A stretch of DNA of 47,717 nucleotides from Gammaproteobacteria bacterium (GCA_038125265.1 JAYPDM010000008.1:1784-49500), one strand, 5' to 3'; shown: positions 20,190 through 45,577, counted from the first letter of the stretch. The notes: generated by a model not told the origin, from the sequence alone. Numbers and translations are program-made.

Positions 20190-20227
20190 TTTAGACTAAG
20201 TCTAAACTAGCAATATATGCTTGTCAA
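20190..20227 (-). promoter_or_regulatory. rbr promoter with palindromic operator over the -10
   Basis: -35 TTGACA (20227-20222), 17 bp, -10 TAGACT (20204-20199), inside TTTAGACT-A-AGTCTAAA (20190-20206). Confidence 0.85.
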
Positions 20228-20263
20228 TGCCTTAAAATAAATTAATTCATTTATAATAAGACT

Positions 20264-20491
20264 ATGAGCAAAAAAAAGAACGACTCTAGCCTGGAGAGCC
20301 ACTTAAGCGGTCTAGAAAAGATTGTATCTGAGCTGGAAAATGGTGAACTATCCCTCGAAGAATCACTTAAAAAATTTGAAGAAGGCGTGAAATTAACAAA
20401 AAATTGCCAACAAATCATTGATGATGCCGAAAAAAGAATAAAGATTATCACCAAAGAAGGGCTTAAGGACTATAAGGACGATCTAGAGTAG
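20264..20491 (+). CDS. xseB: Exodeoxyribonuclease VII small subunit
   Basis: LEKIVSELENGELSLEESLKKFEEG; TATAAT 6 nt before ATG. Confidence 0.96.
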   Translation: MSKKKNDSSLESHLSGLEKIVSELENGELSLEESLKKFEEGVKLTKNCQQIIDDAEKRIKIITKEGLKDYKDDLE

Positions 20492-20965
20492 TAGTAATTG
20501 CCCCAGGCCTATAATTAAAAGAGTAAAGACCCCAGCTAATAAGTCATCCATCATTACACCCATCGCCCCAGTAAGGTTACGATCTGCCCATCCGATTGGC
20601 CCAGGTTTAAAGATGTCTAATATACGAAAAATGATGAATGCCAAACATAGCTCAATATTGGATAAATCCTCAATAAAAAGTAAAACCCATAGCCCGCAAA
20701 TCTCATCAATAACAATGTAACTTGGATCCTTTTCTTGAAGACCGCTTAGAAGGGAAGTCACCGACCAAAAACCTATAATAAGAAGGCAAAGAAAAACTAA
20801 GACTTTCATTATCAAAGTCAATGGCAGCAAAAAATAAAGAAAAAATAACGCGAGCAATGACCCGAGCGTTCCTGGCGCATAAGGAATATAGCCTGTAAAA
20901 AAACCGGTGGCGATAAAAGCGTTTAAGCCCCAAGTGCTCGAGTTTTTATTTTCGAAAATGGTCAT
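20483..20965 (-). CDS. pgpA: Phosphatidylglycerophosphatase A
   Basis: APGTLGS, DPSYIVIDE, FRILDIFKP, GVMMDDLLAG. Confidence 0.95.
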   Translation of the reverse strand: MTIFENKNSSTWGLNAFIATGFFTGYIPYAPGTLGSLLALFFLYFLLPLTLIMKVLVFLCLLIIGFWSVTSLLSGLQEKDPSYIVIDEICGLWVLLFIEDLSNIELCLAFIIFRILDIFKPGPIGWADRNLTGAMGVMMDDLLAGVFTLLIIGLGQLLLL

Positions 20966-21896
20966 AAGTCTTCTGTTCTAGTTTTTCGCCTTGATAATTT
21001 AAAAGCTTAATACTTTTGCTGCTTGTGCAATAACCAATTTTGCTTATTTTTACTGAAAATTTTTTCGATAAATTTGTAATCCAGCTGTCTAATCCTTTAG
21101 GTAAAGTAAACAATAACTCGTAATCCTCACCGCCTGTAAATGCAATCTCAACAGATCTATGTTTATATTTTTTCTTAAGTGCTGTTGAGATAGGAATTTT
21201 ATTTGAGTCAATGATAAAGCCCTTACCGCTGCAATTAGCAAGTATTTTGATTTCATTATAAAGGCCATCTGAAATATCAATCATAGAGGTTGCATGTTTA
21301 GTTAATCGCTTGGCCAATTCGACTCGAGCTATCGGGCTCACAAATGATCTGGTACATTGATTTCTTAGATCAACTCTTTTTGACTCTAGAATATTATCTA
21401 ATCCTGCTCTGGCGTCACCAATATTACCGGTTACATATAAATCATGGTCCTCCCGAGCGCCATCCCTTGTAATTATGTTTCTTCCTTCGGGGTCTCCAAG
21501 CAGAGTCACAGAAACAGATAAGGGCCCTCTGCAAACATCCCCTCCGACCAACCTACACTTATAAGCCTTACATATTTGGTGAACCCCCCTTGCAAAGTCT
21601 TTCATCCAGAATTTATTATTCAGCTCTTGAGGTAATGTTAGTCCCATTAAAAGGTATTTTGGAGTTGCGCCCATGGCGGCTACATCGCTCAGGTTTACCA
21701 ATACTGACCTTCTGCCAATATCATAAGCAGAAAGCTCTTCTGGGAAGTGTGTGCCTAGAACCATCAAGTCCTTACAAGCGATCAGTGCATTATTCTGTAA
21801 GTTAATTAAGGCTGCATCATCGCCTATATCAACCTGAACATCCTTGAGTGGCGTCTTGGCTTTAAAAAGTTCAATTATATTGGTTTCGGAGAGCAA
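20946..21896 (-). CDS. thiL: Thiamine-phosphate kinase
   Basis: IGDDAA, NLSDVAAMGA, LVGGD, DISDGL, GGEDYELLF. Confidence 0.96.
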   Translation of the reverse strand: MLSETNIIELFKAKTPLKDVQVDIGDDAALINLQNNALIACKDLMVLGTHFPEELSAYDIGRRSVLVNLSDVAAMGATPKYLLMGLTLPQELNNKFWMKDFARGVHQICKAYKCRLVGGDVCRGPLSVSVTLLGDPEGRNIITRDGAREDHDLYVTGNIGDARAGLDNILESKRVDLRNQCTRSFVSPIARVELAKRLTKHATSMIDISDGLYNEIKILANCSGKGFIIDSNKIPISTALKKKYKHRSVEIAFTGGEDYELLFTLPKGLDSWITNLSKKFSVKISKIGYCTSSKSIKLLNYQGEKLEQKTYDHFRK

Positions 21897-21899
21897 GGA

Positions 21900-22292
21900 T
21901 TACTGATTGACTAACTGGTGTAAGGCACCATTGACAAACTTATAGCTATTTTCGGAACCAAATAGTTTTGCAAGTTCAATGGCCTCATTAATGATTACGC
22001 CTATGGGGGTCTTCTCCGATAATTTTTCGGCTAGGGCAACAAAAAGCAGCGCCCTATCAATGTAGTCGATCTCGCTAATAGTTCTTTTTGATAAGTTTTC
22101 AATCTCATCTCTGAGCTTATCTTTATTAGCAAAGAATAAATGAAGATTGCCCTTAAAATGACTGCTGTCCACCTTTTTGATATCGGCTTCAAACCACCGA
22201 ACCGTATCCTCCTCAGAGATATCCGACATTAAATGCATATAGACTGACTGCACGAGAAGCTCTCTAGATTTTTGTATTGCACCCTTTTTCAC
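21900..22292 (-). CDS. nusB: Transcription antitermination factor NusB
   Basis: VIINEAIELAKLFG, KFVNGAL; ribH-nusB-thiL synteny. Confidence 0.93.
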   Translation of the reverse strand: MKKGAIQKSRELLVQSVYMHLMSDISEEDTVRWFEADIKKVDSSHFKGNLHLFFANKDKLRDEIENLSKRTISEIDYIDRALLFVALAEKLSEKTPIGVIINEAIELAKLFGSENSYKFVNGALHQLVNQ

Positions 22293-22296
22293 AGCT

Positions 22297-43211: not shown

Positions 43212-43220
43212 GCAGTACTA

Positions 43221-43229
43221 ATCATATCA
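43221..43229 (-). promoter_or_regulatory. Extended -10 for the YwaF operon (near-leaderless)
   Basis: TGATATGAT 9 nt before ATG 43211; no SD. Confidence 0.55.
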
Positions 43230-43244
43230 TTCATCGTTATGAAT

Positions 43245-43272
43245 AAAAAAAGGGCGGCCATAGGCCGCCCTT
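43245..43272 (-). terminator. Rho-independent terminator of katG
   Basis: AAGGGCGGCC-tat-GGCCGCCCTT followed by a T run on - strand. Confidence 0.92.
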
Positions 43273-43295
43273 AAGGTTTCATTTGAATTTAAAAT

Positions 43296-45509
43296 TTATA
43301 AATCAAACCTGTCAGCATTCATTACCTTATTCCATGCCTCAACAAAGTCTGTGAGTAATTTCACTTCTCCATTGTTTACAGCATAGTACTCAGCAACAGC
43401 CCTAAGCTCGGTATTTGATCCAAAAATAAGATCGACTGGAGTTGCAGTCCACTTCATAGCACCGTTATCTCGATCAGACCCTACATAGATACCTTGCTCG
43501 TCTGATGAGGCGCTCCAGACGGTAGACATATCAACAAGGTTTACAAAATAATCATTAGAAAATACACCTGGATTATCTGTAAAAACTCCATGCTGACTGT
43601 CGTTATAGTTAGCGCCAAGAACTCTCAAGCCACCAACCAAAGCGACCATCTCAGGGATGTTCAGATCTAATAAAGCTGCTTTTTCAATCATAGCGTTGAC
43701 CGGTGAAACAGGATTATCAGACTGATGATAGTTTCTGAAAGGATCAGATGTAGGCTCAAGTACGGCAAATGCATTTGCATCGGTCATGTCTTGAGTCGCA
43801 TCAGTTCTACCAGGCTGAAATGGAATAGAGACCGAGTGTCCTGCCATTAAAACAGCATGCTCAATCGCAGCATTACCCGCAAGAACAATCACGTCAGCAA
43901 GCGATACCTGGACTCCATTATCTGAATTTGCATTAAAGCTCTCTTGAACCTCAGTCAGAGCATCAAGTACTCCAGCAAGTGCTGCAGGCTCATTTACCTC
44001 CCAAGTATTTTGGGGGGCAAGATTAATACGCGCTCCATTAGCACCTCCCCTCATATCAGTACCTCTGTAAGTAGAAGCTGATGCCCAGGCGGTTCTAATT
44101 AAATCAGCAGTATCGATGCCAGTCGCTAAAATGTTCTCTTTGAGCAATTCTTGGTCAGCCGTTGAAATAAGCTCGTGATCAACACTTGGAACTGGATCCT
44201 GCCAAATCAATACTTCGCTTGGACTCATGGATCCGAGGTATCTTGCTCTGGGTCCTAAGTCTCTATGCGTAAGCTTAAACCAAGCTCTTGCAAATGCGTC
44301 TTCGAACTCAAGAGGATTTTGCAACCATCGAGATGTAATCTCTCTGTAAGCGGGATCTTCTCTCAAGGAAAGGTCGGTTGTAAACATGATTGGAGCATGT
44401 CTTACGTTTGGATCAAAAGCATCCGGCACTAAATTAGACGCACTCTCGTCACTGGGTACCCACTGAATAGCACCGCTAGGTGTTGTGGTTTGAACCCAAT
44501 CAAAGGCATATAAATTTTGAAGATAGTTATAGGTCCATGCAGCAGGGTTTACTGTCCAAGCCCCTTCAAGGCCGCTGGTTATCGTATCTGCACCATTACC
44601 TGTACCGCAACTGTTAGACCATCCAAAGCCTTGTTGCTCAATATCTCCGCCCTCTGGCTCAACACCCACACACTCGGCCGCGTTTGCAGCACCATGAGCT
44701 TTACCAAAAGTATGACCACCTGCGATCAATGCTACGGTCTCCTCATCGTTCATAGCCATTCTTCCAAAAGTAGTGCGGATATCGTGCGCAGCTGCTAAGG
44801 GATCCGGATTTCCGTTGGGTCCTACTGGGTTAACGTAAATTAAACCCATTTGAGTGGCACCAAGAGTTCTCGCAAGTTGTCGTCCTTCGCCATGTCTCTC
44901 ATCTGCAAGCCACTCTCCTTCTGGCCCCCAGTACACATCATCAGGGATCCAGGCATCGGTTCGGCCTCCAGCAAAACCAAAAGTCTCAAAACCCATCGAC
45001 TCCATGGCCACAGTTCCTGCAAGAATCATCAGATCAGCCCATGAGATGCTATCACCATATTTTGCTTTTACTGGCCAAAGTAACCTTTGCGCCTTATCTA
45101 GGTTGGCATTATCAGGCCAGCTATTAAGAGGGGCAAACCTCTGATAGCCTCCGTCTGATCCGCCTCTTCCGTCTGATACGCGATAAGTACCAGCGCTATG
45201 CCATGCCATTCTGATGAAAAAAGGACCGTAATGACCGTAGTCAGCTGGCCACCAATCTTGTGATGTTGTCATCACATCGATTAGGTCTTGCTTTACCTCA
45301 TCAAGGTCAAGCGCATTAAATGCATCTGCATAGTTAAAATCCTCTGCCAATGGATTGGCACTTGGATTATTCATTCTTAGTGGGTCTAGATTTAATCTAT
45401 TGGGCCACCAGTAATCATTATCTGGTGAGCCCTGTGCATGCAATCCACCAGTAACAAAAGTTGCCATTAATACTAAAGAGCAAAATGGTCTTAACATGTT
45501 ATATGACAT
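43296..45509 (-). CDS. katG: Catalase-peroxidase with N-terminal signal peptide
   Basis: [42 protein letters not shown]. Confidence 0.98.
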
Positions 45510-45524
45510 AAAATTTCCTCATAT

Positions 45525-45577
45525 TTAGATTTGGTCTAATTTAGACTTAGTCTAAATAAAGAAAAATTTAAAGTCAA
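45525..45577 (-). promoter_or_regulatory. katG promoter with tandem palindromic operators
   Basis: -35 TTGACT (45577-45572), 17 bp, -10 TAGACT (45554-45549) inside ATTTAGACT-T-AGTCTAAAT (45539-45557); degenerate copy TTAGATT-T-GGTCTAA (45525-45539). Confidence 0.85.

Follow-up and report, generated by a model that had tools for sequence, protein, structure and literature searches.

The rubrerythrin operon rbr-RFO-DUF3501 and the catalase-peroxidase gene katG of an uncultured, streamlined marine gammaproteobacterium carry the same palindromic box over their promoters. These palindromes are predicted operators of a dimeric, peroxide-released Fur-family repressor of the PerR/Irr clade, which is probably a 134-amino-acid Fur paralog encoded elsewhere in the same genome. 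Both promoters lie in the stretch of DNA analyzed here, hereafter the window, which comprises 47,717 nucleotides of one contig (C8:1784-49500) of genome G000. This genome totals 1,172,589 bases in 34 contigs, is 96% complete and belongs to an abundant lineage.

Palindromic boxes at the rbr and katG promoters

The exact 17-mer TTTAGACT-W-AGTCTAAA (TTTAGACTNAGTCTAAA) occurs in two copies in the window, at 20190-20206 and 45540-45556, with no third, as the original prediction had reported. Allowing up to three mismatches to TTTAGACTNAGTCTAAA adds a single window site, at 45524-45540 and directly adjoining the katG copy; 100 shuffles of the window average 0.33 matches at this stringency, and three matches are reached in none. 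Over the whole of G000, the core of 14 specified bases is seen twice against 0.011 copies expected from base composition, and the core of 12 specified bases, TTAGACNNNGTCTAA, is seen three times against 0.12 expected. All three 12-base cores are intergenic, and they lie solely before rbr, katG and the Fur paralog's own gene.

The two promoters share the geometry originally described, namely TTGAC[A/T], a 17-bp spacer and a TAGACT -10 element formed by one arm of the palindrome, and both read on the minus strand (Table 1). This TAGACT arm is the only plausible -10 at either promoter. Transcription would be expected to start near 20192 for rbr and near 45542 for katG. The minus-strand location of all the genes and two additional degenerate boxes at katG had been overlooked. 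One of these boxes, O3, departs from the 17-mer at three positions and from its 12 core bases at one; the other, O1, is only tentatively a regulatory box. A 7-1-7 palindromic site overlapping the core promoter is the operator format of the Fur family. In the promoters inspected in G000, in its relatives and in a class-wide sample, the box always lies between the -35 element and about +20, and is therefore placed where a repressor binds. The box, TTTAGAC-N3-GTCTAAA, also has the format of the iron control element (ICE) bound by Irr, whose consensus is given as TTTAGAA-N3-TTCTAAA (Rodionov 2006, PMC1698941); it differs from that consensus by one base per half-site, the symmetric difference that had been noted beforehand.

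A second Fur-family gene with a box of its own

The regulator had been anticipated to be an uncharacterized Fur-family protein encoded outside the window, and a search for extra Fur paralogs had been proposed. G000 has two Fur-family genes. One encodes a canonical Fur that passes the Fur equivalog cut-off and bears the helix ATVYRVL. The other, on a contig other than the window's (G000:C17:22365-22769; L008 1459-1863), encodes the 134-residue paralog and is preceded by an exact box, TTAGACATTGTCTAA, which ends 28 bp before the ATG and lies over the gene's own -35: the right arm of the box, TTGTCT, is followed after 17 nt by TATAAT. It completes the genome's set of three exact 12-base cores. 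The TATAAT ends 5 nt before the ATG (G000:C17:22323-22369; L008 1417-1463), so the paralog mRNA may be leaderless.

The paralog belongs to the Fur family (PF01475, 71.1 bits against a cut-off of 23.1). Its structure model has a predicted local distance difference test score (pLDDT) of 90.1, and all 28 fold matches listed for it are Fur-family structures with E < 1e-5. By sequence, its best solved relative is 5nl9, a Leptospira PerR without the structural metal site (1.6e-16), followed by Bacillus subtilis PerR, and the fold ranking repeats this order with 5nl9 first. Judged by the metal-site and asparagine criteria described for PerR (PMC8638851), the regulatory metal site is present, with Asp, not Glu, as its final ligand: H35, D83, H89, H91 and D102 align with H37, D85, H91, H93 and D104 of B. 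subtilis PerR. Likewise, N59, within SKATVYNTL, aligns with the recognition-helix residue N61. Across the 120 best homologs these six residues never vary, and H90, which completes an HHH run with H89 and H91, is kept in 118 of them. HxH and HHH motifs are known for heme binding.

The CxxC motif is absent from the paralog, whose 120 best homologs share no conserved Cys pair, and the structural Zn(Cys)4 site of PerR is lacking. The N-terminal Cys-Pro heme-regulatory motif of the Bradyrhizobium type is likewise absent from the sequence. Published accounts describe the lack of CxxC/Zn(Cys)4 in Leptospira PerRA and PerRB and in Irr (PMC8638851, PMC8638967) and the lack of the Cys-Pro motif in most Irr proteins (PMC1698941). 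Among NCBIfam models, the paralog ranks IrrA (100.3 bits, cut-off 150) and Irr (95.6, cut-off 170) highest, ahead of PerRA (83.9, cut-off 200), PerRB (65, cut-off 250), Clostridia-type PerR (51.8, cut-off 180), Fur (40, under its cut-off) and Thermus-type PerR (35.4, cut-off 200). No curated Irr, IrrA, PerR or Fur cut-off is exceeded; we place the paralog in the CxxC-less PerR/Irr clade, but in no curated equivalog. A protein atlas look-up returned generic Fur clusters only, and the homologs listed, all from metagenomes, are labeled 'iron response regulator' by JGI.

Conservation among relatives

We examined 41 related genomes including G000; the unpublished G039 is counted in the tallies but not otherwise used. 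Of the 41, 22 contain the exact 12-base core (22 of 40 without G039), whereas the reversed control is found in 8 of 41. Its 32 sites comprise 20 before rbr, four before katG and two before the regulator gene (G000 and G001), with the remainder before a di-haem ccp gene (one), a molybdopterin oxidoreductase (MsrP-like) gene (one) and an unannotated membrane protein (one) or within the alaS-csrA spacer (three). Thirty-four relatives bear rbr at E <= 1e-20, and 29 of these have a box in the same place, exact in 19 and with one or two mismatches in 10; the rbr genes of G030, G035 and G038 have candidates with three or four mismatches only. A box also precedes katG in G001, G014 and G023, and in G161 of the class-wide sample. 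The katG boxes are in tandem in G001 (L123) and G014 (L121), and both O3 and O1 recur in G001, a sister genome, where the counterpart of O1 has two mismatches.

The rbr promoters of relatives retain TTGACA at G+C contents of 47-68%. Many of them read TTGACA, 17 nt, TAGATT (or similar), about 10 nt and then the box, so that the box covers the start site instead of the -10; in G000's own genus, in genus g6 and at L051, one arm of the box is the -10. Retention of an A/T-rich palindrome in DNA of 60-68% G+C is the strongest sign of function. Conservation before orthologs, as originally expected, is found for rbr and katG and extends in other genomes to ccp, ahpC and bfr. The paralog itself (E <= 1e-29) is encoded by 33 of the 41 relatives (32 of 40 without G039) and by 20 of the 22 with an exact box, the exceptions being G026 and G028 (82% and 79% complete).

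Co-occurrence and linkage across the class

The class-wide sample consisted of 251 genomes, each at least 90% complete, from over 200 families; two of them, G077 and G155, are unpublished. At a threshold of E <= 1e-22, the paralog is encoded by 93 of the 251 genomes, and an exact box is present in 50. The paralog accompanies the box in 44 of the 50 box-bearing genomes and is found in 49 of the 201 without a box, an odds ratio of 22.7; omitting the two unpublished genomes gives 42 of 48 and 49 of 201. The reversed control has no such link, the paralog being present in 21 of its 66 genomes against a background of 93 of 251.

Leaving out G000, G077 and G155, we inspected 59 boxes in 58 regions of 47 genomes. 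Of these sites, 29 lie before rbr, eight before gpmI, three before ccp, two before ahpC, two before grx-ahpC and two before the paralog gene, with single sites before katG, a bacterioferritin-like gene, an Rrf2-family gene and a crp/fnr-like gene; eight are in coding DNA or before unrelated genes.

Boxes and the paralog gene are also physically linked in at least five separate lineages. At L051 the paralog adjoins a DUF3501-RFO-rbr cluster that has the box; at L059 two boxes and then ccp come after it; and at L061, from a metagenome-assembled genome (MAG) of the Myxococcales, boxes flank the paralog on both sides, and ahpC and ahpD follow. A box precedes the paralog gene itself in the Burkholderiales MAGs L052 and L054 and in G091 and G265.

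Absence of OxyR and an apparent regulator exchange at rbr

A check for oxyR, suggested together with the original prediction, found none in G000: at its 96% completeness, the OxyR model has no match at 1e-30, and the sole LysR-type (HTH_1) gene is CysB-like, with 350 bits against 82 for OxyR. Many relatives have both an OxyR-like and a PerR/Irr-like gene. In genus g10 (G010 and G022), rbr is present, no box precedes it (the best candidates have five and four mismatches) and no paralog was found. At 146 bp from rbr there is instead a divergent, OxyR-like LysR gene (G010:C16:220918-222370; G022:C5:6472-7924), scoring 262-265 bits, which is under the E. coli-trained cut-off. As both genomes are of one genus, we count them as one event, an apparent swap at rbr of an OxyR-like for a PerR/Irr-like regulator.

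Proposed circuit

The boxes, the paralog gene, their conservation, co-occurrence and linkage support the central claim of the original prediction, that a Fur-family repressor would co-control both systems for removing hydrogen peroxide (H2O2). In the circuit we propose, a metal-loaded repressor dimer would sit on TTAGAC(T)-N-(A)GTCTAA, that is, on the -10/start region, and exclude RNA polymerase, thereby repressing the rbr-RFO-DUF3501 operon, katG and the repressor's own gene. At katG, given its three adjacent boxes, repression would probably be cooperative and tight. As with PerR, H2O2 would inactivate the repressor through metal-catalyzed oxidation at its conserved His/Asp site, whereupon the rbr operon, katG and the repressor gene would be released together. 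The paralog would be the only peroxide sensor in the OxyR-less, streamlined G000.

Points against the proposal and alternative explanations

Several observations weigh against this circuit. Relaxed to two mismatches, the pattern is not enriched across G000 (six matches against 17 for the reversed control), so the weight of the case lies with the exact copies and where they are found. Forty-nine of the 93 paralog-bearing class genomes have no exact box, and kinship among genomes means that a Fisher P value overstates the box-paralog association. Upstream of most paralog orthologs the box is missing and a different conserved element, GGTATACTCnnCAAGTnACTGATTTnTAA, stands instead, and autoregulation would therefore be lineage-specific. 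Among the relatives, G020, G026 and G028 (93%, 82% and 79% complete) have boxes and no regulator was found in them. Six box-bearing class genomes also have no paralog; the boxes of G074, G089, G264 and G284 look like chance occurrences (three in coding DNA, one before a SulP gene), but well-placed boxes precede ccp and ahpC in G146 (100% complete; L193, L194) and rbr in G218 (99% complete; L164), and both genomes encode canonical Fur only. A lost or unassembled regulator and a second binder would account equally for these two genomes. Finally, the rbr operon is present in contigs of all four metatranscriptome runs, from four studies, and RNA contigs in three runs end at 20165-20171, around the ATG at 20170 and some 21 nt before reaching the +1 implied by the rbr -10, two of them running into adapter; window positions 20172-20441 have zero coverage by RNA-library contigs. 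Since assembled contigs of this kind give neither strand, level nor start, the rbr transcription start stays a predicted one.

The nature of the signal raises a serious rival. Asp, Asn and the lack of CxxC are described as common to Irr (Grassmann et al. 2021, PMC8638967), and since the HHH run is shared as well, the protein sequence cannot separate peroxide sensing from heme or iron sensing. With the same protein and boxes, Irr-type logic would have the repressor active on DNA under iron or heme scarcity and inactivated by heme, sparing iron by shutting off rubrerythrin, RFO, KatG, Ccp and Bfr, with peroxide at most secondary. The two best curated models, the JGI label, the retained HHH run, the near-identity of the box to the ICE and an iron-scarce marine habitat all speak for it, as do bfr and an Rrf2-family gene among the targets in other genomes and the minimal Irr regulons, rbr-only or ccp-only, predicted in Pelagibacter, Rhodospirillum and Magnetospirillum (PMC1698941). 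However, the paralog scores well under both Irr cut-offs (100 against 150 and 96 against 170) and lacks the Cys-Pro motif. We infer peroxide as the signal, and favor it because several targets (ahpC-ahpD, grx-ahpC, gpmI and the msrP-like gene) contain neither iron nor heme, because rbr of genus g10 is accompanied by an OxyR-like gene in place of the regulator, and because G000 has no other candidate and would under Irr logic be left without a peroxide sensor. On this evidence a purely Irr-type circuit seems unlikely, and sensing of peroxide and of iron or heme could be combined.

It is improbable that another transcription factor binds the box and that the Fur paralog is simply a member of that factor's regulon. 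The well-placed boxes of G146 and G218 would fit such a factor, as would the ArsR-type gene that lies divergently beside box-bearing gpmI promoters in eight genomes. We rejected the ArsR-type protein as the binder, however, because G000 carries three exact boxes and no homolog of that gene. The Fur-family format of the 7-1-7 palindrome, the linkage of the paralog to boxes in at least five lineages, its presence in 44 of 50 box-bearing genomes and the joint absence of box and paralog from genus g10 also argue against another factor. Canonical Fur was rejected as well: its recognition helix, ATVYRVL, differs from the N59-bearing SKATVYNTL of the paralog, and genus g10 has Fur-level matches or none, with no box at rbr. 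That the boxes arose by chance, or are small hairpins or plain promoter sequence without a regulatory protein behind them, is scarcely credible. In its favor, the TAGACT arm is at the same time a -10, a consensus scan shows no enrichment of promoter-like matches relative to shuffled sequence, and three boxes in relatives fall just after alaS, like weak terminators. Yet exact copies are expected at only 0.011 per genome, a 6-bp A/T-rich stem with a 3-nt loop makes no terminator, and in most relatives the box stands downstream of a separate -10 (TAGATT) and is nonetheless conserved at 60-68% G+C; conservation already contradicts the chance reading. A peroxide-released repressor of the PerR/Irr clade thus remains our preferred interpretation.

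Putatively controlled genes and further observations

The genes concerned and their control elements are collected in Table 1. Pfam and NCBIfam matches confirm the gene identities first assigned, rbr-FeS-DUF3501 and katG. The best NCBIfam match of RFO is GlpC, under its cut-off, and KatG scores 1173.9 bits against the catalase/peroxidase cut-off of 981.

Table 1. Predicted control elements, genes and terminator of the two loci in the window
Feature	Position	Strand	Remarks
rbr operator box, TTTAGACT-A-AGTCTAAA	20190..20206		exact palindrome
rbr promoter -35, TTGACA	20222..20227	-	independent promoter scan agrees
rbr promoter -10, TAGACT, left arm of box	20199..20204	-	10/12 matches, 17-nt spacer
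rbr, aerobic-type rubrerythrin, 139 amino acids, no rubredoxin domain	19751..20170	-	Pfam Rubrerythrin 1.3e-29
RFO, rubrerythrin-associated CCG/Fe-S oxidoreductase (GlpC-like)	18374..19696	-	Pfam CCG 2.8e-13
DUF3501 protein, third gene of rbr cluster	17782..18360	-	Pfam DUF3501 6.5e-67
katG box O1, weak, TTAGATTAAGACGAA (gene strand)	45583..45597		just upstream of -35; 3 mismatches
katG promoter -35, TTGACT	45572..45577	-	independent promoter scan agrees
katG promoter -10, TAGACT, left arm of O2	45549..45554	-	9/12 matches, 17-nt spacer
katG operator O2, TTTAGACT-T-AGTCTAAA	45540..45556		exact, overlaps -10
katG operator O3, degenerate, ATTAGACCAAATCTAAA (gene strand)	45524..45540		5' leader, abuts O2
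katG, catalase-peroxidase with N-terminal signal-like extension	43296..45509	-	Pfam peroxidase
intrinsic-terminator-like hairpin 3' of katG	43250..43272	-	10 pairs, 8 G-C, then T run

The first 27 codons of katG (45429-45509, minus strand) resemble a signal peptide, as do those of katG in G014 (L121), which suggests a periplasmic catalase-peroxidase. Between rbr and RFO, a GC-rich hairpin with a 9-bp stem, GGTCGCGCC-GATT-GGCGCGACC, occupies 19715-19736 and may be an attenuator or an RNA-stabilizing stem.

Sites in G000 with two mismatches lie before recA, trxA, accC, bioD, pckG/tsaB and fabG. We rejected them as regulon members since they are too weak and apparently unconserved, and retain trxA as a lead only; the boxes before the thioredoxin gene and recA are at G000:C21:4609-4623 (51 bp upstream) and G000:C1:33450-33464 (53 bp upstream), respectively.

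Outside G000, the eight class genomes with a box before gpmI, which encodes the Mn-dependent, bisphosphoglycerate-independent phosphoglycerate mutase, carry it 23-62 bp upstream (position 901 of L148, L152, L156, L161, L177, L191, L199 and L200). The gene is always divergent to the ArsR-type gene, about 85-92% identical across the eight genomes; G000 is without both genes. This arrangement may be a metabolic arm of the regulon. The three alaS-csrA boxes (position 1501 of L078, L084 and L119, from G014, G017 and G003) lie just after alaS and about 200-280 bp before csrA, and in two of these three relatives a second conserved stretch, AAAATGCATTA.ACTAGGC, stands between box and csrA. In high-GC relatives (L012-L049), the element GGTATACTCnnCAAGTnACTGATTTnTAA lies about 30-60 bp before the paralog start (for example L012 1540-1600) and corresponds to a -10 and the start of the leader.

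Relation to known systems

A Fur-family repressor that responds to peroxide or iron through a 7-1-7 box is a known kind of system. What appears to be new, judging from the papers searched, is the TTAGAC-N3-GTCTAA box, its assignment to a gammaproteobacterial PerR/Irr-clade protein, the breadth of that protein (93 of 251 genomes) and the predicted targets gpmI and csrA. The main texts searched yielded neither this box nor a gammaproteobacterial PerR/Irr regulon. To this the window contributes a second target, katG, with a triple box, a regulator with its own box, the absence of OxyR and the exchange in genus g10.

These findings would place a PerR/Irr-type regulator with a defined box in over one third of a broad gammaproteobacterial sample, and a marine lineage that is abundant, uncultured and streamlined would have no other candidate peroxide sensor. 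Box, protein and predicted targets can be tested in vitro without culture, and peroxide or iron stress could become readable from marine metatranscriptomes. The textbook view assigns OxyR to Gammaproteobacteria and PerR to Gram-positive bacteria. A bolder and still tentative possibility is that a third, as yet unstudied branch of the PerR/Irr clade, with the TTAGAC-N3-GTCTAA box, is a major gammaproteobacterial peroxide regulator, acting beside OxyR in large genomes and wholly replacing it in streamlined marine lineages, with a regulon that includes gpmI and csrA.

The operon in the window is a typical copy of the RBR-RFO-DUF3501 cluster described under the names "aerobic-type rubrerythrin" and RFO (Cardenas, Quatrini and Holmes 2016, PMC5114695): its Rbr has no rubredoxin domain and is joined by a CCG Fe-S oxidoreductase and DUF3501. 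A term search of the text of that paper returned zero occurrences of 'regulat' or 'PerR'; the operator and regulator proposed here are an added layer, through which this poorly understood cluster would gain a first regulatory handle.

The Irr proteins of Alphaproteobacteria (Bradyrhizobium, Rhizobium, Brucella) share with the paralog the lack of CxxC, the HHH run, the recognition-helix Asn, the best NCBIfam scores and the targets rbr, ccp, katG and bfr. They differ in that the paralog falls under both equivalog cut-offs, its box has C/G where the ICE has A/T, its targets include iron-less proteins and its host is a gammaproteobacterium; the comparative survey of Rodionov (2006, PMC1698941) reports no Irr or ICE outside Alphaproteobacteria. 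Leptospira interrogans PerRA (PDB 5NL9), the best solved relative by both sequence and fold, likewise has no CxxC and has the same five ligands and Asn, and sites upstream of perRA resemble Irr boxes (PMC8638967). PerRA nevertheless belongs to a different phylum and is about 28% identical to the paralog, which reaches 84 bits against the PerRA cut-off of 200.

All five site residues and N61 of B. subtilis PerR are matched, its operator is also a 7-1-7 palindrome, and it represses catalase and peroxidase genes and itself, as we propose for the paralog. The paralog has no Zn(Cys)4 site, however, and scores only 47 bits to the 2fe3 sequence. The B. subtilis PerR box consensus is TTATAAT-N-ATTATAA, from which the present box differs at two of seven bases per half-site. 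OxyR of E. coli and other Gammaproteobacteria fills the same physiological role, the co-control of katG and peroxidases, but does so as a LysR-family thiol-switch activator, an unrelated protein acting at an unrelated site.

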